This document shows, piece after piece, positions 9,558 through 37,136 of a stretch of 40,516 nucleotides of DNA. Source of the stretch: Minisyncoccota bacterium (GTDB lineage Bacteria > Patescibacteriota > Minisyncoccia > Phycocordibacterales > SBAW01); assembly GCA_035546615.1 (NCBI GenBank), contig DASZWM010000001.1, forward strand, positions 1 to 40,516, in the 5' to 3' direction. Position 1 is the stretch's first letter; each line of letters begins with the position of its first letter. The translations under genes were made by a program, and so were the position numbers. The notes under the pieces were generated by a model. That model was given only the letters and a program-made list of their open reading frames with translations. It searched no databases and had not been told where the DNA came from.

Positions 9558-10469
9558 ATGGCTCAGAGCGAACTTAGCAAGCTTAAGACCGAATTCCTCG
9601 AGTATTTGGAGATAGAAAAAGGCCGCTCGGTGAAGACGGTCGAGAACTACGACCGCTATCTCAACCGCTTTCTCGCTTTTTCGAAGGTTTCCTCACCTTC
9701 CGGCATTACCGAGCGGGGCGTGCGCGAATTCCGCCTCCACCTCAACCGGCAGGACGGCACGTCGGGCACCATGAAGCACAAGACCCAGAACTACTACATG
9801 ATCAGTCTGCGCGCGTTCCTCAAGTTCCTGCGCAAGCGCGACATCGAGTCGCTCAATCCGGAAAAGATAGAGCTTGCCAAGGTGGGCGCCCGCGACCTCG
9901 ATCTCATCTCAAGCGACGAGCTCAACCGCCTCATCCAGGGCCCGAAGGGAGATTCTCTGACCGCCTTGCGCGACCGCGCCATCATGGAGCTCTTCTTTTC
10001 GACCGGCCTGCGCGTATCGGAGCTGGTCGGCCTCAATCGCGACCTTGACCTCTCGCGCGACGAGTTCTCCGTGCGCGGCAAGGGCGAGAAGGTCCGCGTG
10101 GTATTCCTCTCGCCCGCCGCGAAGAGGGCCATCAAGGCGTATCTGGACAAGCGCGGCGACATAGACGACGCGCTCTTCGTGCAGATGGGCAAAGCCTCAA
10201 AGAACGCCAAGCAGCTGCGCCTCACTCCCCGCTCTATAGAGCGCATGATAAAGCAGTACGCCACGAAGGCCGGCATTACGCGCAAAGTGACGCCGCACGT
10301 CATCCGCCACTCCTTTGCCACCGACCTGCTTGAGAGCGGCGCCGACATCCGTTCGGTGCAGGCATTGCTCGGCCACGCCAATATCGCGACGACGCAGGTC
10401 TACACGCACATTACCGACAAGCACCTGCGCGAGATACACAAAAAGTTCCACGGCCAGCGCAGGAAATAA
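9558..10469 (+). CDS. Tyrosine recombinase, XerC/XerD type
   Basis: C-terminal RHSFATDLLESGADIRSVQALLGHANIATTQVYTH catalytic region (R..HxxR..Y). Confidence 0.85.
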   Translation: MAQSELSKLKTEFLEYLEIEKGRSVKTVENYDRYLNRFLAFSKVSSPSGITERGVREFRLHLNRQDGTSGTMKHKTQNYYMISLRAFLKFLRKRDIESLNPEKIELAKVGARDLDLISSDELNRLIQGPKGDSLTALRDRAIMELFFSTGLRVSELVGLNRDLDLSRDEFSVRGKGEKVRVVFLSPAAKRAIKAYLDKRGDIDDALFVQMGKASKNAKQLRLTPRSIERMIKQYATKAGITRKVTPHVIRHSFATDLLESGADIRSVQALLGHANIATTQVYTHITDKHLREIHKKFHGQRRK

Positions 10470-13730: not shown

Positions 13731-13803
13731 GCCCTCGTGGCTCAATGGATAGAGCGCCTGGCTTCGAACCAGGAGGTTCCAGGTTCAAGTCCTGGCGAGG
13801 GCA
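13731..13803 (+). tRNA. tRNA-Arg (anticodon TCG)
   Basis: Manual cloverleaf: acceptor GCCCTCG/CGAGGGC, anticodon arm CCTGG-CTTCGAA-CCAGG, T arm CCAGG-TTCAAGT-CCTGG. Confidence 0.8.
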
Positions 13804-13850
13804 CAAACTTGGAGTTTAAAAATTGGTGCGCTACTATAGTGTGTGTACAA

Positions 13851-13921
13851 GCGGTCATTGTTTAATGGTAGGACGCGTCCTTGCCAAGGACGAGGTGGGA
13901 GTTCGATTCTCCCTGACCGCA
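13851..13921 (+). tRNA. tRNA-Gly (anticodon GCC)
   Basis: Acceptor GCGGTCA/TGACCGC, anticodon arm CGTCC-TTGCCAA-GGACG, T arm GGGAG-TTCGATT-CTCCC. Confidence 0.8.
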
Positions 13922-14137
13922 CAGGATTTACGTTGTTCTAAAAGGAGAAGTTGGTCCGTTTTGAGGTAAAAGACAGGGTGTGGCCGTTTGGGGATATTGA
14001 AATGGCTTAAAATAAGGCTTTTTCAATAAGACCTGTGGATAAGACTGTGGAAATGTGCATAAAGGACGTCCTTTTTACCCTTTGCGGAAGTCTGATTTCC
14101 AAAAAACCAGCAAAATAGGGCTTAAAATGAGCTTTTT

Positions 14138-14155
14138 ACGTTTCATATGAAACGT
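14138..14155. promoter_or_regulatory. 18-bp perfect palindrome ACGTTTCATATGAAACGT, about 40 bp upstream of yraN
   Basis: Seen directly; lies in the AT-rich tRNA-Gly/yraN intergenic region; candidate operator. Confidence 0.35.
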
Positions 14156-14193
14156 TACACGTGAACCCTCGTCAGGATTCTGATGCATTAAAT

Positions 14194-14589
14194 ATGGCTA
14201 AAACTCACAAAAGAGCTATAGGAGATGCCGGCGAAGGTGTTGTTTGCCGGTATTTAGAAGGAAAAGGCTATCGGATTGTTGGTAGGAATTACTGGAAACC
14301 GTGGGGAGAGATAGACATCGTCGCTGAAAAAGGCGATTTGACCATATTTATAGAGGTTAAAACCGTTTCACGTGAAATGGACGGGGAGGGGATTTCACGC
14401 GAAACCTTCAGACCGGAGGAGAATATGCATCCGGATAAGGTAAAAAGGCTGCACCGGACTATACAAACCTACCTTTTAGAGAAAAAAGTCCCTGAAGCAA
14501 GGCCGTGGCGGCTAGACCTTGCCTGCGCCTATTTGGACTTTAAAACCCTTCAGGCGCGTGTTGAAATGTTGGAGAATGTGGTGTTGTAG
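14194..14589 (+). CDS. yraN: YraN/UPF0102-family endonuclease-like protein
   Basis: GEGVVCRYLEGKGYRIVGRNYWKPWGEIDIVAEKGDLTIFIEVKT matches the UPF0102 core; visibly lower GC than surrounding genes. Confidence 0.7.
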   Translation: MAKTHKRAIGDAGEGVVCRYLEGKGYRIVGRNYWKPWGEIDIVAEKGDLTIFIEVKTVSREMDGEGISRETFRPEENMHPDKVKRLHRTIQTYLLEKKVPEARPWRLDLACAYLDFKTLQARVEMLENVVL

Positions 14590-14658
14590 TGCTATCCTCA
14601 AATAATCCAGGCGAGGCAACGCACCGGTAGTACGATTGCGTGGGGTCAAATGCTGTGT

Positions 14659-14729
14659 CGGGGCGTCGTATATCGGTAGTACGCTTGCTTTGGGAGCAAG
14701 ATGGCCCAGTTCGATTCTGGGCGCCCCGA
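14659..14729 (+). tRNA. tRNA-Pro (anticodon TGG)
   Basis: Acceptor CGGGGCG/CGCCCCG, anticodon arm CTTGC-TTTGGGA-GCAAG, T arm CCCAG-TTCGATT-CTGGG; flanks extend the acceptor stem (CTGTGT/ACACAG). Confidence 0.8.
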
Positions 14730-14757
14730 CACAGTATTTGACCGTTAAAGACTTACA

Positions 14758-15630
14758 ATGGAACGCATACTTCTTACTACAAAGCCGCAAAAGGACTACG
14801 AGCTGCTCGACTCCGGCGGGGAAGAGAAGCTTGAACGGTACGGAAATGTCCTTTTGAGCCGGCCCGACCCGCAGGCGCTATGGCCCAAGCAGCTTCCTGA
14901 AGGGGAGTGGACGAAGGCGAATGCCCGCTATATCCGGGAAGGGAATACCGGCAAGTGGGTAGGGGAGTTGCCCAAAGAATGGCCTATAGAGCTCGGAAAT
15001 CTCAAATTCCTCATACGCCCGACGCCATTCAAACACACCGGCCTTTTTCCCGAGCAGATTTGCAATTGGGAGTGGGCAGGCGAGCTGATACGGGGCGCAG
15101 GAAGGCCTGTGTCGGCGTTAAACCTCTTTGGGTATACAGGAGGCGCTTCCCTTGCCGCGGCGGCCGCAGGCGCATCTGTAGTGCACGTAGACGCGTCTAA
15201 AACGGCCGTAGCGTGGGCGCGTGAGAATGCGGAACTCTCGGGCCTGGCTGACAAGCCTATACGATGGATAACGGAAGACGTGAAACTGTTCGTGGAGCGC
15301 GAGCTGAAGCGGGGGAATCGCTATGATCTGATATTGATGGACCCGCCCGCCTTCGGCCATGGGCCAAAAGACGAGTTGTGGAAGATTGAGGAGGACCTGC
15401 TGCCGCTTATAGAGGCTTGCACGCGGCTGTTGTCCGAAACGCCCGTAGGCATGCTGGTAAACGGCTATGCTGCCGGGTATTCGCCGCTGGCATTCGCGTA
15501 TAATCTGGAGCCTCTCGCGCAAAAAATGGGCGGCGCAACAGAATACGGCGACCTTACGATAGAAGAAAAGGGGAGCGGGCGGCTCCTACCGTGCGGCATT
15601 TTCGCGCGCTGGCGCGCAAAAAACCTTTAG
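14758..15630 (+). CDS. Class I SAM-dependent RNA methyltransferase, RlmI/RlmK-like
   Basis: LFGYTGGASL SAM-binding motif I and ILMDPPAFG motif IV; overall arrangement like 23S rRNA m5C methyltransferases. Confidence 0.65.
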   Translation: MERILLTTKPQKDYELLDSGGEEKLERYGNVLLSRPDPQALWPKQLPEGEWTKANARYIREGNTGKWVGELPKEWPIELGNLKFLIRPTPFKHTGLFPEQICNWEWAGELIRGAGRPVSALNLFGYTGGASLAAAAAGASVVHVDASKTAVAWARENAELSGLADKPIRWITEDVKLFVERELKRGNRYDLILMDPPAFGHGPKDELWKIEEDLLPLIEACTRLLSETPVGMLVNGYAAGYSPLAFAYNLEPLAQKMGGATEYGDLTIEEKGSGRLLPCGIFARWRAKNL

Positions 15631-16764
15631 TTACTGGGCTTTCAGGGCTTTTATAAGCGCTGCGCGCTCTTGCGCCGCCGCAGACGATTCAAAGTCTTTG
15701 GCTTCCTGCACGACATCTTTCGAAAGCAGCCCTTCGATACCGCCCTTGTCGTAGCTGAGAAGGCTGCGATTGATATGCGCGAGCGTTACGGCCCTGAGGT
15801 CGCGGCCTTCGGTCGTACCGGCGGTCGTGCTTGTCGTAATGATGCCCTGCAGGCGCCCGTCCTGCGTCCGAACCGCCGCTCCGCCTGAAGAGCCGCCTTG
15901 CGATACGACCGTGCCGCCTATCGAGACCAGGTCTACAGTGCGCTTCGTGAACGTGAAAAGTTCCTTAACCGCGGCGAAGGCCGAAGAAGGGTAAAGGTTC
16001 TGCCGGATGGACGTGCCGTCCAGGAAGCCGGCGGGATAGGCGGCCAAGAACATGTTCTGCCCGACCTTGGGCGCGTCTATGGTCATCGAAAGGGCAGGGA
16101 AGGAGGCGGGAAGCGAATCTTTCGCGCTGACCGTATCCGTCACGATAAGGAAAGCGTAATCGTTCTCGCCCGTGCCGCGGGCGTCCGTGAGCGTTATCTG
16201 CGGCGCATGGTCTTCTATCCAGGCGGGCGGCAAGTATAGGAGCCTGGCTTTGTATGCGGCAGCGGCGGGGCTTCCGGTGCGGAGCGTGCAGTCGACGTCG
16301 CCGCGGGTAGGGTAGTCGGAGAGCAGGAACATCTGCCCGACGTGGGCATTGGTAAGCACTATGCCGCGAGAGTCTACGAACACGCCGCTTCCGGATATGG
16401 GATGCACTTTATTGGTTTTTGTGAGGCACAGGATATTTACAAGCGCGGCGCGGGTTTTGTCGTTGAGCACGTCGGCGGAGAGTTCCGCGGCCGGCGGCTG
16501 CGCGGGAGTCGTTGATGCAGCCAGCGGTTTCGGCGCATTGGCGGAAACAGGAGCGGAAACAGGAATATATTCCTCCTGTTCGATCGGTATATCGTTCGGC
16601 ACAACCTGGAAGCGGGGCGGGGGAGGGGATACCGCGCCCGTTACGGGCGCGACCGATACGACCGTGTCGCTCGGAATGTAGGTATCCACGACGTTGCCGA
16701 CGAACATGGTCAGCGCTGCCCCCATGGCCACGAACGCCGACAGTAGCGTCGAGATTATTTCCAT
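15631..16764 (-). CDS. Membrane-anchored trypsin-like (S1) serine protease
   Basis: N-terminal TM helix; catalytic triad contexts TNAHV (His), DYAFL (Asp), GGSSGGA (Ser). Confidence 0.7.
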   Translation of the reverse strand: MEIISTLLSAFVAMGAALTMFVGNVVDTYIPSDTVVSVAPVTGAVSPPPPRFQVVPNDIPIEQEEYIPVSAPVSANAPKPLAASTTPAQPPAAELSADVLNDKTRAALVNILCLTKTNKVHPISGSGVFVDSRGIVLTNAHVGQMFLLSDYPTRGDVDCTLRTGSPAAAAYKARLLYLPPAWIEDHAPQITLTDARGTGENDYAFLIVTDTVSAKDSLPASFPALSMTIDAPKVGQNMFLAAYPAGFLDGTSIRQNLYPSSAFAAVKELFTFTKRTVDLVSIGGTVVSQGGSSGGAAVRTQDGRLQGIITTSTTAGTTEGRDLRAVTLAHINRSLLSYDKGGIEGLLSKDVVQEAKDFESSAAAQERAALIKALKAQ

Positions 16765-16830
16765 AGTAAATATAGTATACGCTCCAATAAGAATGCGCGA
16801 TTCATTAGCGGCGCAGTTGCGATGCGAAAT

Positions 16831-16904
16831 GCGGGATTAGTTTAGTGGTAAAACGACAGTTTTCCAAACTGTAGTTGGGAGTTCGATTCTCCCATCCCGC
16901 ACCA
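16831..16904 (+). tRNA. tRNA-Gly (anticodon TCC) with encoded CCA
   Basis: Acceptor GCGGGAT/ATCCCGC, anticodon arm ACAGT-TTTCCAA-ACTGT, T arm GGGAG-TTCGATT-CTCCC, 3' ACCA. Confidence 0.8.
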
Positions 16905-26311: not shown

Positions 26312-27976
26312 ATGCACGTCGATAGTGGGGCACTGCGGGATTTTTTGATTTCAAACGGGCTTGTTACCCGCGCGCAATTGGCTGATGTTCTTTCCGCAGG
26401 ACAGGGAGAGGCCCTGTACGACACGCTTGCCGCGCGGGGCGTGGTCTCGCAGGACGAATTGCGCCGCGCGGCGGCGCATGTTGCAGGCGTTTCTTTCGTA
26501 TCGCTCTCGCCGCACGACATAGCCCTGGAGACCTTGAGCCTCATTCCCGAGCCGCTATCGCGCGTTCACAATGTCGTGGCTTTCAGGCAGGAGGGAAATG
26601 TCGTCGAGGTGGCGATGCTCGATCTCGGTTCGCTTGAGCATCTCGCTTTCCTGCGCGACCAGAAAGGCTTTACGGTTCTGCCGCGCCTCACTACTTCGGA
26701 TTCGATAAAACAAACGCTTCGGGCGTACCAGCAGCGCTTAAAGGAGAATTTCAAGGCGCTCCTCCAGAACAGCGCCCATGCGGTCGATGCGCTTATCCGC
26801 CACGCGCTTCTTTCAAACGCCGGGAGCGTTCATCTTGATCTGCATCAGACGGGATTACTCGTGCGCTACCGCATACAGGGCATGCTCCACGAAGCGATGC
26901 TTTTGCCGAAGGAAGCCGCGCATATCTTCGAGCGCATCAAGGAGGCGGCGAATCTCTCGCTTACGCTCCACGTGCCGCAGGAAGGAAGTTTCAAGACGGA
27001 GCTCAGCGGCGGGGAATCGGTCAGCGTGCGGGTCGCTGTGTCGCCGACTCTTTCCGGCGACCGAATGACGCTGCACTTGGCGCCCGAGCGCTCCCGCCGG
27101 CAGGGCTTTGCCCTTGAGTCGCTCGGCCTGCACGGCCGCGCGCTTGAGGATGCGCACGCGCTGCTCCGGACGCGCGACGGGCTTATAATCGTTGCCGGTC
27201 CTCTTAACGCAGGCAAGACAACGACCCTCTATACGCTGCTCGATATCCTGAGCGAGCGCGGCGTATCCGTTGCCACGGTGGAAGAGAATATAGAGTACGC
27301 GCTGCCGCATGTTGCCCAGACGCAAGTGCGCTCCGAACTCGGGCTCACTTCGGCCGCCGCTTTGCGCGCGGTCCTTCGGCAGGATCCGGATATCGTGATG
27401 CTGGGCGACGTTGCCGACGAGCAGACTGCCGCTTTAGCTGCGCAGGCGGCTTCGCGCGGGGTGCTGGTCTTGATGGGTATTGAAGCGTCCTCGGCTGCCG
27501 CGGCGGTAGGGAAGCTGCGCGACTGGAGGATCCCGTCCTCGCTCGTCGCTTCTGTACTTAAGGGCGCCATAGGCGTGCAGGTCGTGCAGAAACTTTGCAC
27601 GAAAGAACGCGAAGAGTACCGGCTCGCGCGGATCGAGAGCGCGCCGCTCGAGCCCAAGGCGAACTTCGGCCGCGTGCTTGCGGCGCTCAAGGAAGAGGGG
27701 ATAGTGGGGAAGGATATGCAGTGGAAGGAGCTTCTTTTCGCGCGCGCTTCCTCCTGCGAGGAGTGCGCCGGAGGATATCAGGGCAAGATCGGGCTCCAGG
27801 AAGTGCTTCCAGTCACTGCTCCTATAAAGGATGCATTAAAGGAAGGCGCGGGAGCAGAAAGAGTAGAGGAAATAGCGCGAGAGGACGGCATGCTCACCAT
27901 AGCCGAAGACGGATTATTTAAAGCCGCGCAAGGCACTACGAGCGTCGAGGAAGTAGTGCGGGTAGTTCAAGCGTAG
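26312..27976 (+). CDS. Type II secretion / type IV pilus assembly ATPase (GspE/PilB family) with a T2SSE_N-like N-domain; catalytic motifs appear degenerate
   Basis: Walker A GPLNAGKTTTLY; RQDPDIVMLGDVAD in the Walker B region; C-terminal CEECAGGYQGKIGLQEV finger; His-box position reads LMGIEAS. Confidence 0.8.
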   Translation: MHVDSGALRDFLISNGLVTRAQLADVLSAGQGEALYDTLAARGVVSQDELRRAAAHVAGVSFVSLSPHDIALETLSLIPEPLSRVHNVVAFRQEGNVVEVAMLDLGSLEHLAFLRDQKGFTVLPRLTTSDSIKQTLRAYQQRLKENFKALLQNSAHAVDALIRHALLSNAGSVHLDLHQTGLLVRYRIQGMLHEAMLLPKEAAHIFERIKEAANLSLTLHVPQEGSFKTELSGGESVSVRVAVSPTLSGDRMTLHLAPERSRRQGFALESLGLHGRALEDAHALLRTRDGLIIVAGPLNAGKTTTLYTLLDILSERGVSVATVEENIEYALPHVAQTQVRSELGLTSAAALRAVLRQDPDIVMLGDVADEQTAALAAQAASRGVLVLMGIEASSAAAAVGKLRDWRIPSSLVASVLKGAIGVQVVQKLCTKEREEYRLARIESAPLEPKANFGRVLAALKEEGIVGKDMQWKELLFARASSCEECAGGYQGKIGLQEVLPVTAPIKDALKEGAGAERVEEIAREDGMLTIAEDGLFKAAQGTTSVEEVVRVVQA

Positions 27977-29985: not shown

Positions 29986-30162
29986 ATGCGGGACTCCGTT
30001 CAGCAGCAAGAAGAACCGACTTCAATTTTCAACAAGCGTACTTTGTTCGTCGCCGCGTTCATCGCGGCGCTATTCTCGCTTTTCCTGCTTCCGCGGGAGA
30101 CGCTGAAGGGGTGGGTAACCCCATCCGCAGATCATTCTATGACAGCGAAGGCGCTGCCATAG
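29986..30162 (+). CDS. Possible small membrane protein, 58 aa (MRDSVQQQEEPTSIFNKRTLFVAAFIAALFSLFLLP...)
   Basis: Unlisted short ORF with one TM helix, immediately followed by a strong terminator. Confidence 0.3.
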   Translation: MRDSVQQQEEPTSIFNKRTLFVAAFIAALFSLFLLPRETLKGWVTPSADHSMTAKALP

Positions 30163-30171
30163 CCAGACGAA

Positions 30172-30198
30172 GGCCCGCCGGATGGCGGGCCTTTTTGC
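30172..30198 (+). terminator. Rho-independent terminator (GGCCCGCC-GGAT-GGCGGGCC + TTTTT)
   Basis: Perfect 8-bp GC stem plus T5. Confidence 0.7.
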
Positions 30199-30225: not shown

Positions 30226-30576
30226 ATGCCGCCGGAATCGCAACCGCAACCGCAGCAGCCCCGCATTCTTTTTCCGAAAGCGCATCTTTTTGTCGCGCTT
30301 GCGGCCGGCGCCTTGTGCGTCGCGGGCGGCACGGCGGCCCTTTTCTTTTCCCGCTCGCCGGACGTTTCTCCTGCGGCGCAGGCTCCAGAGCCTCCGGCAT
30401 ACGACAGCCGCTCTCTTACCGCCGAGGAAAAATTGAAACTCATCTCGGAGCATCCCGCCCCTCCGGGCCTTTCCGCCGAGGAGAAGGAAGCCGCGTACGA
30501 ACACAGCGGTGCAACAGCTCCGGAAGGCCTTACGTCGCAGGAAAAGCAGCGCATGGCCGAAGAAGCGCAGAACTGA
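30226..30576 (+). CDS. Small membrane-anchored protein with three (L)(T/S)AEEK-type repeats
   Basis: AAGGAG SD; TM helix LFVALAAGALCVAGGTAALFF; repeats LTAEEKLKLI / LSAEEKEAAY / LTSQEKQRMA. Confidence 0.55.
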   Translation: MPPESQPQPQQPRILFPKAHLFVALAAGALCVAGGTAALFFSRSPDVSPAAQAPEPPAYDSRSLTAEEKLKLISEHPAPPGLSAEEKEAAYEHSGATAPEGLTSQEKQRMAEEAQN

Positions 30577-30582
30577 TCACGC

Positions 30583-31533
30583 ATGAAACCTGCTACGACT
30601 TTAAAACGGCATATGCGAACTGCGCTTGCATGGATGGTCGCGCTCGCGGCTGGCATAGCGGTGCTCGCGACGCTTTCTCGTGTCATGCCGGCGCCCCCCC
30701 TTTACGCGCAGGTGCCCGCCGCCAACGGAGGCGTCCTTGCGCACGCCGCATGGAGCTCGAATATTGGCTGGGTAGAGTTTTCGGGAACAGGCTGGGGCGT
30801 GTATCTTTCGCCAAGCGACGGCACTTCGCTCCTCGGCTACGCCTGGAGCTCGAACGTGGGATGGATACAGTTCGGCGCGACATCGTGCGGCGCGGCGCCA
30901 AGCATAAGCGGCACCAAGCCCACCGTATCGCTCACGGGCTGGGCCAAGGCGCTCGCCACGGGCGGCGGCTGGAATGGCTGCATCAAACTTTCTAATACCG
31001 GCTCGCCGTCATATGGCGTCGCCGTCTCCTCGTATTCGCAGGCCAGTCAAGGGGGCTTGCTTCAAGGCTACGCGTGGGGGAGCGATGTGGTCGGCTGGCT
31101 TCGGTTCGATCCGGCGCCCGGCGGCGTGTATCTCAAGTTTACCTCCTGCAACAACGGCCTCGACGATGACCATGACGGCCTCGCCGACGCGGCCGACTCC
31201 GACTGCCCCGACCTGACTTCAAACGGCGAAGTAGTGACGAATCCGGCCGCGACGGTCGATATCAAGGCTAACGGTAAGGACACGCTGTCGGTGCGTCAGG
31301 ACTCGAGCGTGAGCGTCACCTGGAGCACGAGCCTCGTCGGAGGCTGCACGCTGACCGACCCTTCCGGAACCAGCGCTGTTTCCGATCAGAATACCGTGGG
31401 CTCGGCCTATACTGTCTCGGCCGCGAGCGGCTTCACTCTCGCCTGCCGCGAGCTCGTGGGCGGCCTGCCTACGGGCCCCGCGCATAGCGATAGGGTCGTG
31501 GTGCACCTGCTTCCTATGTACCGCGAGATTTAG
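30583..31533 (+). CDS. Secreted/anchored protein with three WSSN(I/V)GW(I/V)xF tandem repeats, a thrombospondin-type-3-like Ca-binding motif and a C-terminal beta-rich domain
   Basis: N-terminal hydrophobic segment; repeats AWSSNIGWVEF, GYAWSSNVGWIQF, GYAWGSDVVGWLRF; DDDHDGLADAADSDCPD matches DxDxDGxxDxxDxCP. Confidence 0.65.
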   Translation: MKPATTLKRHMRTALAWMVALAAGIAVLATLSRVMPAPPLYAQVPAANGGVLAHAAWSSNIGWVEFSGTGWGVYLSPSDGTSLLGYAWSSNVGWIQFGATSCGAAPSISGTKPTVSLTGWAKALATGGGWNGCIKLSNTGSPSYGVAVSSYSQASQGGLLQGYAWGSDVVGWLRFDPAPGGVYLKFTSCNNGLDDDHDGLADAADSDCPDLTSNGEVVTNPAATVDIKANGKDTLSVRQDSSVSVTWSTSLVGGCTLTDPSGTSAVSDQNTVGSAYTVSAASGFTLACRELVGGLPTGPAHSDRVVVHLLPMYREI

Positions 31534-31548
31534 TGATAAAATAAACTC

Positions 31549-32697
31549 ATGTTCAAAAAGACGCGCGAAGAATTCCTCCGGTTTTCAAAAGCTTTCCTGC
31601 TAGCCGCTTTAGTTCTTCTGGGAAGCGCGGCGCTCGCCGATTGGACCGCGCCCGTTGCCGCGCCACCCACCTGCGCTTCCGGCAACCAGGGCTGCGACGC
31701 GCCCATCAACGTAAGCGCAACAGCACAAACCAAAACGGGCAATCTCACCATCGGCTCAGGCGGCACGAACGTGCTCATTTCCGCCACCGGTTATATCTGG
31801 CCTACTATCCTGAATGTCGGCAGCACCTATCCAACCACGCCCCCTCCCAACAGCATTTGCCTATCGGGTTCGTGCATTACCGCCTGGAGCCAAGCCGGCG
31901 GAGGCGGGACTGACTATCAGGCCTTCACTACTGCGGGTGCTGGGTCATGCCCCGGCACTGGCACTAATTGCTGGACGAAGCCAAGCGGCACCACCGCGTC
32001 ATCACGTACGCTCATAGAGTGCTGGGGAGCGGGCGGCGGAGGCAGCGCTAATGGCGGGGGTGGGGGCGGCGCATATCGCGGGCGCTGGGTCCTGACCTCA
32101 TCTCTCGGCGCGACCGAACCGGTTACTATCCCTGGCACAAGCAACACAGCAACCGCAGGAGCGGCAGCTTCTTTCGGAACCTGGGCAACAGCACCGGGGG
32201 GTGGGGCAAGCAACACGACAAGCGGCGGAGGCGGAGGCGGAGGTGGCGGGTATGATGCGGCAGGCGGCAATGCCGGCGTCGGCGGCGGGGGCTATGCCGC
32301 CAGCGGCGGTAACGGCGGCAATGCCGCGTATAGTTACGGCCTTGCAGGCCTGTGCAGCCTTTCTTCCAACGTGGCACTGCGTACCGGTACTGACGCTACC
32401 AGCGGAGGCGGAGGCGGAGGCGCGGCAGGCTGCGAGGGCGCAGACAAAGGAGGCGACTCCATTACCGGCGGCGGGGGTGGCGGCGGCAACCATGGAGACG
32501 GTAACCCGAAGAACGGCGGCAACTCAATATGGGGCGGCGGAGGAGGCTCAGCCGGGTCTTCAGGAGGAAGCGGAGGGCGCAGTATGTACGGCGGCGCGGG
32601 CGGCGCGACCGGTGTTGCGGGTACCGCGCCGGGCGGCGGCGGCGGGCGCAACGCCCAAGGAGCCCGCGGCGAATGCAGGGTTACGACGTTTAAGTAG
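31549..32697 (+). CDS. Secreted glycine-rich protein (Gly_rich / polyglycine-II-like), with an N-terminal Cys-containing domain
   Basis: Sec signal peptide ...AALA; IECWGAGGGGS, GGGGGGGGGYDAAGGNAGVGGGGY and further Gly runs; antisense frames are Pro-rich artefacts. Confidence 0.65.
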   Translation: MFKKTREEFLRFSKAFLLAALVLLGSAALADWTAPVAAPPTCASGNQGCDAPINVSATAQTKTGNLTIGSGGTNVLISATGYIWPTILNVGSTYPTTPPPNSICLSGSCITAWSQAGGGGTDYQAFTTAGAGSCPGTGTNCWTKPSGTTASSRTLIECWGAGGGGSANGGGGGGAYRGRWVLTSSLGATEPVTIPGTSNTATAGAAASFGTWATAPGGGASNTTSGGGGGGGGGYDAAGGNAGVGGGGYAASGGNGGNAAYSYGLAGLCSLSSNVALRTGTDATSGGGGGGAAGCEGADKGGDSITGGGGGGGNHGDGNPKNGGNSIWGGGGGSAGSSGGSGGRSMYGGAGGATGVAGTAPGGGGGRNAQGARGECRVTTFK

Positions 32698-32705
32698 ATT
32701 ATTTT

Positions 32706-33065
32706 TTAGAGCGCCGCGCGGATCTTCCGCGCGTTCCCTTCAAGGTCCGTTTTTTCGCCCTTCGCGTTGTTATTGGGAAATACCCAGATATGCGCGTGCT
32801 CCACTTCGTCGCCCACTGTTTTTGAAAGTATCCAGTCGGTGTCGAACGCCTGTTGCTGGGCTTTGGCTATTTTTTTCGCTACCTCAAAATATGCTCCGGC
32901 ATTCGGCACGTCCCAGACCCAGCGGTAGTGCTCTTTCGGAATTACCTGGGCATGTCCCGGCGATTGCGGGTGTATGTCGAGGAAGGCGAGGAAATGCTCG
33001 TCCTCATACACCTTCTGCGCGGGAATCTCTCCGGCTACTATTTTGCAGAAAATACAGTCAGGCAT
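32706..33065 (-). CDS. HIT-family (histidine triad) nucleotide hydrolase
   Basis: HAHIWVFP histidine-triad motif and an N-terminal CxxC. Confidence 0.85.
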   Translation of the reverse strand: MPDCIFCKIVAGEIPAQKVYEDEHFLAFLDIHPQSPGHAQVIPKEHYRWVWDVPNAGAYFEVAKKIAKAQQQAFDTDWILSKTVGDEVEHAHIWVFPNNNAKGEKTDLEGNARKIRAAL

Positions 33066-33088
33066 GCCTCTATAGTATACTTCTTCCG

Positions 33089-34768
33089 ATGAAATCCTAC
33101 CGATTGCGCGAGCGGGCGCACGATGAGCTGCTCCCGGACCTCATGCTCGCCCGCGGCGTCGTCGGCGATGAGGCGCAGAAGCAGTTCCTCGCGCCCGACT
33201 TCGAGCGCGACTCCGGCGATCCCTTTCTGCTGCCTGACATGGATAAGGCGGTCGACCGCATTCTGTCCGCGGTGAAGAATGCCGAGGCGGTGTGCGTGTG
33301 GAGCGACTACGACTGCGACGGGATTCCCGGCGGCGTCATGCTCACGGAGTTTTTGCGCTCCATCGGTTTGACCGTTCGCCACTATATTCCGCATCGCCAC
33401 ACCGAAGGGTACGGATTGAACGAAGAGGGAATAGAAGAGCTCGTACAGCAGGGCATCAAGCTCATCATCACCATTGATCTCGGCACGACCGAGATAGAAC
33501 AGATCGCGTACGCCAATTCCAAAGGCGTCGACGTCATCGTCACCGATCACCACATCGTGCAGGACGATCTTCCGGATGCGTTCGCTCTGCTCAATCCGAA
33601 GCGTCCCGACAGCGCGTACCCGTTCGACGGATTGTGCGGCGCGGGCGTTGCGTGGAAGTTGGTGCAAGCAACGCTCGCGCGTTTGCGCGCGAGCGACAAT
33701 CAAATAGACTGGCGCGGTTTTCCGGAAGGCCAGGAGAAATGGCTGCTTGACCTGGTCGGCATCGCCACGCTTTCCGACATGGTGCCGCTCGTCGGCGAGA
33801 ATCGCATGCTCGCGCATTTCGGTTTGCGCGTTCTTCGCCGCGACCGGCGCCCCGGCCTTTCCGCGCTTTTGAAATTGCTGCGCATCAAGCCGTCCACGCT
33901 TACGGAAGACGATATCGGATTCATGGTGTCTCCGCGCATCAACGCCGCCTCAAGGATGGACAAGCCCGACACCGCGGCGCGCCTGCTTGCTACGTCCAAT
34001 GCCGTGGAAGCATCCGACATCGCCTTCGAGCTCAACCGCATCAACGACGAGCGCAAGGGAGTGGTTGCCGCGATAGTGAAGGAGGCGAACAAGCGCATGG
34101 AGGATATGCCTGCCGACGGTCCCGTCATCGTCATGGGAAATCCGAAGTGGCGCCCCGGCGTGCTCGGTCTCGTCGCAAACAGCTTGATGGAAGCGCAGGG
34201 GAAGCCCGCGTTCTTGTGGGGCCGGGAAGGCGGAGAAACAATAAAGGGCTCGTGCCGCTCCGACGGTTCCGTCAGCGTCGTCGATCTCATGGCTGCGGCC
34301 GGAGACGTGTTCCTCGGGTTCGGCGGACATACCGCCTCCGGCGGATTCTCGGTCGATGCCGGGCGCGTGCACGAGCTCTTGCCGCGGCTGACGTCTGCGT
34401 ATGAAATGCTGCGCGCGAAAGCGTCTGTCGCGCAAGATGTTGTTATAGACCGGCAGGCTGACCTGTCTGAGATCTCCCACGCCCACCGCGACTTGGTAAA
34501 GCTTGCCCCGTTCGGTATCGGCAATAGCAAGCCCCTGTTCATGTTCCCCGACGTCTCAATCGGCAACACGAAGATGTTCGGCAAGACCAATAATCATCTG
34601 GATATGAGCCTGGAGAAAGGCGGCAGCCGTATCTCCGGCATCGCGTTCTTCTCCGGCCACGATTCGTTCACGAAGAAGGTGGAGAAGGGCGCCCGCGCCG
34701 ACATCGTGGGCCACATAGAGAGCGACTGGAGGGGGCAGTCGCGCATCCGGGTTGTTGATATACTCTAA
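33089..34768 (+). CDS. recJ: Single-stranded-DNA-specific exonuclease RecJ (DHH + DHHA1); start at MKSYRLRE
   Basis: DHH motifs (DYDCDG, ITDHH), DHHA1 GGGH region; the longer upstream in-frame extension is not coding. Confidence 0.9.
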   Translation: MKSYRLRERAHDELLPDLMLARGVVGDEAQKQFLAPDFERDSGDPFLLPDMDKAVDRILSAVKNAEAVCVWSDYDCDGIPGGVMLTEFLRSIGLTVRHYIPHRHTEGYGLNEEGIEELVQQGIKLIITIDLGTTEIEQIAYANSKGVDVIVTDHHIVQDDLPDAFALLNPKRPDSAYPFDGLCGAGVAWKLVQATLARLRASDNQIDWRGFPEGQEKWLLDLVGIATLSDMVPLVGENRMLAHFGLRVLRRDRRPGLSALLKLLRIKPSTLTEDDIGFMVSPRINAASRMDKPDTAARLLATSNAVEASDIAFELNRINDERKGVVAAIVKEANKRMEDMPADGPVIVMGNPKWRPGVLGLVANSLMEAQGKPAFLWGREGGETIKGSCRSDGSVSVVDLMAAAGDVFLGFGGHTASGGFSVDAGRVHELLPRLTSAYEMLRAKASVAQDVVIDRQADLSEISHAHRDLVKLAPFGIGNSKPLFMFPDVSIGNTKMFGKTNNHLDMSLEKGGSRISGIAFFSGHDSFTKKVEKGARADIVGHIESDWRGQSRIRVVDIL

Positions 34769-35780: not shown

Positions 35781-37136
35781 GTGGCAAATCGTTTCATATT
35801 GGGTCTGCTTATTTTGGCCTATGTTGGCGCGCTTATCGTGCGGACAGATTTTCTTTTACGAAGCGAGGCAGGGGAGACGCTTAAGAATTACGTCGGCACT
35901 TCTGCGACTGTTGAAGGGAGGGTCGTGAACGACCCAGAACATCGCGACACGTCGCTCCACGTCAACGTCGAAGTTTCTAAAATAAATGATGAAGCTGCAA
36001 GCGGCGTATTGCTTGCGATACTGCCGCGAGAAGCGCAACTTCAGTACGGAGACAGAGTCGCGCTTAAAGGAAAAGTAACCGCGCCGGAATCTTTTGAAAC
36101 TGATACCGGGAGAATATTTGATTACGCCGGCTACCTGCGCGTGCAGGGAGTATCGGCGATGCTTAAATACGGAACGATTGAAGAAATAAATCCCGGCGGA
36201 TGGTCGCTCCAAAAAACGCTGTTCGATATCAAGCACGGGTTCGAACACTCGCTTGAGCGAATGCTGCCGGAGCCGGACAACTCGCTGCTCGAAGGGGTAC
36301 TCCTCGGCGAGCGGCGCGGATTGCCCGACAGCCTCAACCATGCGTTTATCGTCTCAAGCCTGGTGCATGTTGTCGTGCTCTCCGGCTACAACATTTCTAT
36401 CGTCGCCAATGCGATGCTGTACGCGACCAGCATTTTGCCTCGCACGCTTAGCTACGGGCTCGGCGGCGTGCTGATGGTCCTCTTCGCTATCATGACGGGC
36501 GCCGGCGCCACGACGGTACGCGCGTGCGCCATGGGTATCATCGCGATAGTGGCGCAGTATATGCGCCGCAGGGCCGTAGCTATGCGCAGCCTCATTGCGG
36601 CGGCGGGCGCCATGGCGTTGTGGAATCCGCTCATTATCCTGCACGACACTTCCTTCATATTGAGCGTGCTGGCGACCTTCGGGCTCATTACGCTGTCGCC
36701 GTGGGTGGAAACATACCTCTCTTGGATGCCGCGGTGGAAATATCTGGACGTACGCGCCATAGCCGCCTCTACCATTGCGGTGCAGATATACATATTGCCC
36801 GCGCTGCTGTACTTCATGGGCATACTTTCGTTCGTAGCGCTTCCGGCCAATATGCTGGCGCTCCCGGTCGTGCCGTTCGCGATGCTCTTAGGTTTTTTTG
36901 CAGGGGTTGTGGGGCTGATCCAGCCGGTTCTTGGGCTGCCGCTGGCATTCCTCGCGGATATTCTGTTGCGCTGGATGATGTTGGTGGCAAACACCGCCGC
37001 ATCCCTGCCGTTTTCTTCAGCCACCATAGCCGCGTTCCCTGCATGGGTCGCAGTTGCGGTCTATATTCCCCTGACGGGCTTCGCTATCTGGCTATATCGA
37101 AACGCTTCTCGAGAACAGACCAGTTCAAGTTCTTAA
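35781..37136 (+). CDS. comEC: ComEC/Rec2 DNA-uptake channel: DUF4131 OB-fold plus Competence domain, lacking the C-terminal metallo-beta-lactamase domain
   Basis: N-terminal OB-like region, then a polytopic TM region with LLGERRGLPD...FIVSSLVHVVVLSGYNIS typical of the Competence domain. Confidence 0.8.
   Translation: MANRFILGLLILAYVGALIVRTDFLLRSEAGETLKNYVGTSATVEGRVVNDPEHRDTSLHVNVEVSKINDEAASGVLLAILPREAQLQYGDRVALKGKVTAPESFETDTGRIFDYAGYLRVQGVSAMLKYGTIEEINPGGWSLQKTLFDIKHGFEHSLERMLPEPDNSLLEGVLLGERRGLPDSLNHAFIVSSLVHVVVLSGYNISIVANAMLYATSILPRTLSYGLGGVLMVLFAIMTGAGATTVRACAMGIIAIVAQYMRRRAVAMRSLIAAAGAMALWNPLIILHDTSFILSVLATFGLITLSPWVETYLSWMPRWKYLDVRAIAASTIAVQIYILPALLYFMGILSFVALPANMLALPVVPFAMLLGFFAGVVGLIQPVLGLPLAFLADILLRWMMLVANTAASLPFSSATIAAFPAWVAVAVYIPLTGFAIWLYRNASREQTSSSS

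Follow-up and report, generated by a model that had tools for sequence, protein, structure and literature searches.

A candidate adhesin of a Candidate Phyla Radiation bacterium, with a glycine-rich head related to phage tail fibres behind a shared N-terminal module

The gene and the N-terminal parts of its product

The stretch of DNA analyzed here, hereafter the window, comprises 40,516 nt of a contig from a bacterium of the Candidate Phyla Radiation (abbreviated CPR; also called Patescibacteria) and carries housekeeping genes throughout, namely comM-like, pnp, xerC/D-like, cca, htrA-like, rny, tig, nusA, pilB, tpiA, pgk, hit, recJ and comEC, together with four tRNA genes. The gene under study, hereafter the target, lies at 31549..32697 on the + strand of the window, starts with ATG and encodes 382 amino acids (aa) plus a stop codon; its product is identical in sequence to the NCBI entry 'MAG TPA: hypothetical protein VHD55_00185 [Candidatus Paceibacterota bacterium]'. 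From its N-terminus onwards the product has the layout of a modular, presumably exported protein: signal peptide, a module typical of CPR bacteria (hereafter the N-module), stalk and a head of the Gly_rich_2 type. The nearest relatives of this head outside the CPR, among those checked, are tail-fibre genes in phage genomes; the target gene is chromosomal and syntenic, and its signal peptide and mostly CPR N-module replace the N-terminus with which phage proteins attach to the virion.

A preliminary description of this stretch had taken the open reading frame (ORF) at 31549-32697 as a real gene, a view borne out by the ATG start, the length of 382 aa, the identical NCBI entry and the homologues of the + frame at 31549 (137 relatives at E<=1e-3, with an orthologue at E 2e-83). 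The Pro-rich ORFs of the - strand (31917-32270 and 32334-32651), earlier regarded as artefacts of the gene, are indeed mirror images of its GGN-rich frame, and homologues exist for the + frame only. Another overlapping ORF of 855 aa (32201-34768, +) is recJ (DHH, DHHA1 and RecJ_OB domains) with a spurious 5' extension, which runs in other frames over the target and over the convergent HIT gene (32706-33065, -). Glycine accounts for 105 of the 382 residues (27%), reaching 35% within residues 126-382, and its runs vary from G3 to G9 rather than from G5 to G9 as first described: G3 at 217, G4 at 117, 162 and 245, G5 at 329 and 362, G6 at 169 and 286, G7 at 307 and G9 at 226. All four motifs quoted in the preliminary description are present in the protein. 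DNA tandem repeats or slippage tracts beneath the glycine runs amount at most to short, weak arrays. The ten cysteines form five obvious pairs (42/49, 104/109, 134/141, 158/376 and 269/295).

Residues 1-30 (31549..31638, +) read as a Sec-type signal peptide or, alternatively, an uncleaved signal anchor, having a basic n-region (K3, K4, R6, R11 and K14), a 16-residue hydrophobic core and A-L-A ahead of D31; AlphaFold2 (AF2) predicts a helix across residues 3-29. The normal Sec signal that had been noted earlier thus fits, by rule of thumb and as judged by eye, a substrate of the Sec system and of signal peptidase I, so that the protein is presumably exported and its signal cleaved. The leader ends in an AxA-type site for signal peptidase I, not in one of the prepilin type, and a search with a regular expression over the first 60 residues found the prepilin motif (class III signal, GFxxxE) in none of the 144 N-module proteins, the target included. 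We rejected type IV pilin or minor pilin as the identity of the protein on these grounds, pilin genes occurring near N-module loci in a single case (locus L046).

The N-module (residues 31-74, 31639..31770, +) reads DWTAPxxxPPTCxSGNxGCDAPINVSxTAQTKTGxL and contains the C42-C49 pair. Its family is uncurated and defined here by a signal peptide directly followed by W-T-x-P-x3-PP-x-C-x2-G-x2-G-C-D-x-P-x-N-x5-Q-x-K-x-G. A hidden Markov model (HMM) made from 142 other members gives the target 82.8 bits (E 3.7e-25); the target possesses all the invariant residues and constitutes the single copy in the window. A 34-sequence alignment gives the family core as (D/A)WTAPxxxPPTCxSGNPGCDAPxNVSxTxQxKxGxL, with 12 invariant positions; conservation reaches at least 90% at W32, P35, P39, P40, C42, G45, G48, C49, D50, P52, N54, Q60, K62 and G64, positions that include the C42-C49 pair, the conservation of the Cys pairs in the N-domain having been proposed for inspection. 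The invariant Trp follows x-(L/Y/F)-A-(D/A) and has a median position of 30 in 119 of the 144 members. A phmmer search with residues 28-125 against 1.84e9 representative sequences returned 357 proteins at E<=1e-3, nearly all of the matches listed starting at about residue 20-60 of the protein, right after the leader; N-module proteins span from 70 to 1444 aa. The module has no counterpart in Pfam, NCBIfam or the PDB. Rerunning AF2 with the alignment of the N-module degraded the head and gave this region values of the predicted local distance difference test (pLDDT) of 72-81, with no regular secondary structure.

A pattern scan of the GTDB species representatives identified 45 N-module loci, mostly in lineages of Patescibacteria and a few under proteobacterial labels, and the same kind of scan found the pattern in none of 2.9 million viral contigs. 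Metagenome-assembled genomes (MAGs) labelled as Alphaproteobacteria, Gammaproteobacteria or Xanthobacteraceae hold some of the N-module loci and also some genes of the GYAWS-repeat family to which the upstream neighbour of the target belongs (see below). Loci under such labels are L026 (on a 2.2-Mb contig of uncultured Alphaproteobacteria), L020, L023, L025, L042, L046, L047 and L049. Either these labels are wrong or the N-module is not strictly confined to the CPR.

The stalk (residues 75-120, 31771..31908, +) is variable and ends in a conserved Cys hairpin, SICLSGSCITAW (C104-C109), for which AF2 predicts a small hairpin pairing residues 102-105 with 108-111. Compared with the orthologue, residues 41-100 are variable and residues 101-120 conserved. 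The motif C.xGxC...W is common to 14 of the 144 N-module proteins.

The glycine-rich head

The head (residues 121-382, 31909..32694, +) is predicted to combine a tumour necrosis factor (TNF)-like beta-sandwich with about 10-12 glycine-rich motifs, as in the PF21722 (Gly_rich_2) type. All 137 relatives share a C-terminal domain of about 235 residues, which starts with (D/N)YQxFTxxGTWTKP and ends with APGGGGGxNAxGARGExRVxxF. With an HMM of 100 homologous domains, from which the target and its orthologue had been left out, the target domain reached a bias-corrected 151 bits, and each of 500 shuffles that preserve its composition fell below zero; the signal of the head is thus more than compositional. 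PF21722 members make up 58 of the 108 phmmer homologues, and we are highly confident in assigning the head as homologous to PF21722 over the whole domain. The target itself matches no Pfam or NCBIfam family at E<=1, and the PF21722 HMM applied directly (gathering score 24.3 bits) recovers neither the target nor its orthologue, P0002, likely because of the way in which HMMER handles the bias of glycine runs. The preliminary description had proposed a comparison with PF12810 (Gly_rich), membership of which we can rule out since it matches neither the target (at E<=1) nor any of the 108 homologues (at E<=0.01); its wider attribution to the Gly_rich or polyglycine class holds at the level of the fold.

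The 58 PF21722 members among the homologues carry tail-fibre modules as N-terminal partners, namely DUF2793, Mtd_N, PTR, the N domain of T7 tail fibres and a depolymerase C domain. The target matches the PHROG tail family phrog_863 (E 1e-4). The family profile matched PDB entries only in the N-domain region of the phage proteins (tail fibre gp47, 9B45), and PDB sequence searches with the target, the N-module profile and the upstream protein yielded nothing useful. The search of 50,697 phage genomes with the head by tblastn produced no match, probably owing to the low-complexity filter, and BLASTP of the target against gp33 of phage Bxb1 was not significant. The four non-CPR homologues that we looked up (P0005, P0006, P0008 and P0019) all lie in phage tail modules, with a lysin-type gene closely downstream of the first three; where the top head matches come from a named cellular source, it belongs to the Alphaproteobacteria. 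About 20 of 120 Gly_rich_2 homologues, including P0003, P0004, P0006, P0008, P0019 and P0037, possess a signal-peptide-like leader, in many cases followed by 'ATLLPPG..F.D.NG.PL..G.V.FY.P'. Three of these (P0006 at L004 10001-11824, P0019 at L006 10001-11320 and P0008 at L054 9001-10362) nevertheless reside in phage tail modules, where one would not expect a tail-fibre protein of the virion to bear a leader of the export type.

AF2 modelling with a 120-sequence alignment folds the head confidently, with pLDDT mostly >90 over residues 120-382 and beta strands at either end; structure prediction had been proposed earlier as a check. The TNF-like sandwich and a packed glycine-rich lattice are interleaved in the predicted fold. 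For residues 216-374, DSSP assigns hardly anything beyond isolated single-residue bridges; such glycine stretches at high pLDDT would fit segments of the polyproline-II type, without proving them. The head is predicted to share the three-dimensional fold of a solved PF21722 member, Bxb1 gp33 ('tail wing brush'), which gave the top score of the structural comparison (16.8; 2.5 A over 165 residues, 33% identity), followed by the fibre gp24 of cyanophage Pam3 (13.6), the Bxb1 tail spike gp29 (9.2), four ALK glycine-rich domains (6.5-6.9; 2.6-3.0 A over about 122 residues) and TNF ligands (about 2-2.5). Foldseek ranks the same proteins. Searching BFVD produced 83 viral matches at E<=1e-3, many annotated as 'glycine-rich domain-containing protein' and others as mycobacteriophage minor tail proteins.

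Variation within the head is localized. A target-specific insertion at residues 131-141 (31939..31971, +), inside the conserved FTxxGTWTKP, contains C134 and C141 and likely forms a small disulphide loop; column occupancy is 0 at residues 131-140 among 119 homologues, and orthologue P0002 also lacks the insertion. The second site is a hypervariable zone, residues 241-300 (32269..32448, +), with C269 and C295, which is a candidate tip for ligand contact. Identity to the orthologue drops there to 6/20 at residues 241-260 and 2/21 at 261-280 (8/41 columns across 241-280), compared with 16/20 at 141-180 and 14-20 per 20-residue window across 301-380; the zone also shows low alignment occupancy, and its pLDDT declines to 55-56 at residues 261-280. 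C158 (IECWG) and C376 (GECRV) covary, both being present in 26 members and one alone in 16 (Fisher p = 5e-13, uncorrected for phylogeny), from which a disulphide is predicted that would clamp the first strand of the domain to its last.

Heads and neighbours of the N-module family

The N-module carries interchangeable heads across hundreds of proteins, and its genes often lie directly upstream of pilB/pilC. Among the 144 members, Pfam recognizes intramolecular fibre chaperones of the Peptidase_S74 family in 14, Gly_rich_2 heads in 3 (5 with our own HMM, including the target and P0002), collagen in 2 and Shufflon_N in 2, besides H-type lectin, Xlink and Lcl_C heads and the phage-type heads Collar, gp53-like and PRD1 spike. 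The better of the two matches to Shufflon_N, the constant part of PilV, which is the pilus-tip adhesin of R64, has E 2e-12. At the syntenic position of two related genomes, the third gene of the cluster retains the N-module with a short, non-glycine head instead, and other CPR genomes combine the module with a more divergent Gly_rich_2 head (P0384, L027 and L035). On the phage-dominated HMM, P0384 reaches 45 bits versus 145-151 for the target, and it is absent from the top 120 matches of the latter; judging from these sequences, the target head appears closer to phage tail-fibre heads than to those of P0384, L027 and L035. The presence of swapped and divergent heads on the same module implies that heads have been exchanged on a constant N-module. 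Of note, locus L008 (5781-7858) shows two tandem N-module genes split by a small membrane protein, with a T2SSE gene 1.7 kb off; one of the pair encodes 256 aa with a degenerate Gly-rich/TNF-like head and the other is P0384, of 299 aa with a PF21722 head.

The target is the third gene of its cluster. The second, ending 15 nt before it (30583..31533, +), encodes an exported protein of 316 aa with three repeats of the GYAWSxNxGWxxF type, belonging to a CPR-wide family (353 matches) that is syntenic in L001 (6993-7982), the P0123 contig and L007; it has no Pfam or PDB relatives. We also noticed in this protein a sub-threshold match to an acidic double-disulfide repeat (NF033662) and a conserved C-terminal end, (L/I)(L/I)P(M/V)Y(R/K)EI. 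The first gene (30226..30576, +) encodes a small membrane protein of 116 aa with L(T/S)xEEK repeats, whose position is kept in L001, L007 and L008; the first-gene proteins of such clusters have marginal similarity (about 24% identity, E 5e-4 to 0.3). Just 5' of this gene, at 30172-30196, the sequence GGCCCGCC-GGAT-GGCGGGCC-TTTTT forms a perfect 8-bp GC hairpin with T5 behind it, which looks like an intrinsic terminator and is unlisted by the consensus terminator scan; promoter and terminator scans gave site numbers no higher than in shuffled sequence. Between pgk and the hairpin, inspection by eye suggests a putative ORF of 58 aa with a hydrophobic segment (MRDSVQQQEEPTSIFNKRTLFVAAFIAALFSLFLLPRE...) at about 29987-30163 (+).

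The orthologue P0002, with 55-61% identity, is found in a second Paceibacterota MAG in which the genes are ordered as in the window: PGK, a protein of 108 aa, one of 329 aa, the 353-aa orthologue, HIT, RecJ and ComEC (the latter at 35781-37136, +, in the window). The 40.5-kb window contains no phage structural, lysis or replication genes. Its sole integrase-family gene encodes a XerC/D-like tyrosine recombinase and lies 20 kb off (9558-10469, +), and its tRNA genes (Arg-TCG, Gly-GCC, Pro-TGG and Gly-TCC) occupy 13731-16904.

The gene for the type IV pilus assembly ATPase, pilB (26312..27976, +; T2SSE and MshEN domains by Pfam), is located upstream of the cluster at a distance of 2.2 kb, separated from it by tpiA and pgk; here it is part of the context, not an operon partner. 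Elsewhere in the family, 12 of the other 44 loci have a gene for a PilB-type ATPase at <=4 kb from the N-module gene, always on the same strand, and, where at least 1.5 kb of sequence is available downstream (30 N-module genes), pilB follows in 9 cases; among all the downstream gaps, five measure 3-110 nt. Locus L015 (1232-7978) presents an operon-like string with gaps of a few to about 55 nt, in the order GYAWS-family protein (769 aa, with PKD), N-module protein (334 aa), PilB (T2SSE and MshEN) and PilC (T2SSF), whereas L039 (2540-7645) has nusA, then the N-module gene and PilB. By our rough estimate, made without a control set, adjacency by chance would be around 2% where a genome measures about 1 Mb and has one to three pilB genes. 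Type IV pili are required for host association in cultivated Saccharibacteria (PMC9894109, PMC11623550), whose pilus protein PilX2, a proposed adhesin, combines a large C-terminal domain with a non-canonical signal peptide (PMC11623550).

Candidate function and comparison with known systems

We favour, on balance, the reading of the target as a cell-surface adhesin, which taken as a whole is somewhat probable; the chances of the adhesin role by itself we put at around even or slightly better. The N-module of the exported protein would dock to a structure of the cell surface, possibly the type IV pilus machinery or the pilus tip, and the ligand of the head would sit on another cell, which is plausibly the host of the CPR bacterium. 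The glycine-rich lattice may serve as a rigid scaffold, with specificity set by the disulphide-braced hypervariable loops (241-300 and the 131-141 insert), as has been proposed for Pam3 gp24 and S16 gp38. A direct connection of the target protein with the pilus is possible but rather doubtful. More tentative still is the broader idea of a lineage-wide CPR surface system of exchangeable heads, in which a secreted N-module, encoded together with a GYAWS-repeat protein beside pilB/pilC, would be displayed by or on the type IV pilus apparatus and bear swappable receptor-binding heads, many of them derived from phage tail fibres.

Several points weigh against the adhesin reading. Surface location, docking and ligand binding are all deduced from sequence and model, and cleavage of the signal peptide is a judgement by eye. 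No anchor was recognized in the form of a sortase signal, a lipobox or a pilin motif, and the docking role is a guess because the N-module is predicted without regular structure. The target matches neither of the two Pfam HMMs, PF21722 and PF12810. The association with pilB, which has no control set behind it, may partly reflect shared ancestry, and, given the distance of 2.2 kb here, the pilus link depends upon other members of the N-module family. Finally, the function of Bxb1 gp33 is reported as not known (PMC12646305).

Among the alternatives, the one that survives best, although unlikely, is that of a structural envelope component, namely a glycine-rich protein of the S-layer or cell wall that binds no ligand and whose lattice forms a rigid, protease-resistant block. 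It would accord with the richness in Gly, Ala, Ser and Thr (233/382, 61%), typical of abundant exported proteins, with the lack of a known ligand for gp33, the closest solved relative, and with the conservation of the target in synteny with two other exported proteins. However, related genomes have unrelated heads at the same locus, the variation between orthologues is concentrated in the loop zone while the scaffold retains more than 75% identity, and other N-module proteins bear lectin, collar and spike-type heads, altogether a pattern of recognition rather than of structural proteins.

A secreted factor of competition or defence is a good deal less probable; it would be either a soluble decoy masking receptors from phages or a bacteriocin-like protein with a phage head as targeting domain. 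Tailocins and bacteriocins do reuse receptor-binding heads of phage type, and the target combines a signal peptide with no recognizable anchor, but no toxin, immunity or tailocin genes are nearby, no neighbours of the PADLOC type were seen (PADLOC itself was not run) and the association across the family is with pilB/pilC, not with toxin genes.

Even less credible is a phage tail-fibre gene, encoding a virion protein of a prophage or of its cryptic remnant in the CPR genome, despite the homology of the head to phage tail-fibre tips, the tail modules around the nearest homologues examined and the match to phrog_863. We reject a prophage origin, and largely refute a virion identity, because the window is housekeeping throughout (nusA, pilB, tpiA, pgk, hit, recJ and comEC being the neighbours), without genes for phage structure, lysis or replication in its 40.5 kb, and because this synteny recurs in the second genome at 55-61% protein identity; moreover, the N-terminus consists of a signal peptide and an N-module not found in the viral contigs scanned, the tail-fibre N-domains of the homologues (DUF2793, Mtd_N, T7 tail and the region matching gp47 of 9B45) are missing, and the lone integrase-family gene is distant and XerC/D-like. 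The notion of a merely compositional GC/GGN-rich open frame, with an overlapping ORF as the true gene, has a negligible chance, since several long ORFs do overlap the region on both strands but the reverse ones are poly-Pro mirrors, that of 32201-34768 is extended recJ, homologues are confined to the + frame, and the profile score against negative shuffles and the confident fold prediction refute it as well.

The target represents a concrete candidate for a host-recognition protein in CPR bacteria, ultrasmall episymbionts of which almost none is cultivated and whose recognition of the host is largely unexplained. Should the broader idea of exchangeable heads hold, an episymbiont would have borrowed the host-recognition device of a phage to find the same host, and the sequence of the head could predict the organism to which an uncultured CPR bacterium attaches. 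The target would also illustrate how the receptor-binding proteins of phages and the surface proteins of cells exchange modules, and it would extend the few known proteins with TNF-like and polyglycine architecture to the surface of bacterial cells. We found nothing on this combination in the literature on PF21722, on CPR/Patescibacteria tail fibres or on polyglycine II tail fibres. The fold of the head is known, having been solved in Bxb1 gp33, Pam3 gp24 and ALK, and what appears undescribed is its occurrence in a chromosomal exported CPR protein, behind a shared N-module and often beside the pilus ATPase.

The arrangement of N-module proteins resembles, in layout, that of modular type IV pilus adhesins such as PilY1, the R64 PilV shufflon proteins and TM7x PilX2, which join a constant N-terminal part to a variable C-terminal binding part; they differ in that none of the 144 bears a prepilin-peptidase motif and that pilB is outside the operon of the target. 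The closest solved structure to the head, Bxb1 gp33 (PDB 9D93 chain Q; PF21722), is a virion appendage docked via gp30/gp31 (PMC12646305); it has no signal peptide, whereas the target is chromosomal, carries the CPR N-module and shows extra insertions at residues 131-140, 243-248 and 260-271. A more remote example of the fold, as far as the model indicates, is the ligand-binding glycine-rich domain of ALK/LTK (PDB 7LRZ, 7LS0, 7NX3 and 7LIR; PF12810), with just 17-20% identity in structural alignment and a different biological setting, ALK being a metazoan receptor tyrosine kinase whose ectodomain binds a cytokine.

In Pam3 gp24, whose architecture is similar to that of C. elegans ALK, a TNF-like and glycine-rich domain recognizes the host with 12 glycine-rich motifs, having dihedral angles 'close to beta-sheet', and a variable distal tip (PMC9608196). 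Its structure (PDB 7YPX) includes an N-terminal alpha-helical domain for trimerization and baseplate docking and requires the chaperone gp25, whereas the target has neither the helical shaft nor an adjacent chaperone-like gene; the zone 241-300 of the target parallels the variable distal tips of gp24 (PMC9608196). ALK and the gp38 adhesin of Salmonella phage S16 have been listed as natural proteins with polyproline-II/polyglycine-II bundles (PMC12227593). The polyglycine-II sandwich of gp38 (PDB 6F45) follows the same design principle as proposed for the target, namely a lattice of conserved glycine motifs that presents hypervariable receptor-binding loops at the tip of the fibre (PMC9608196, PMC12227593).

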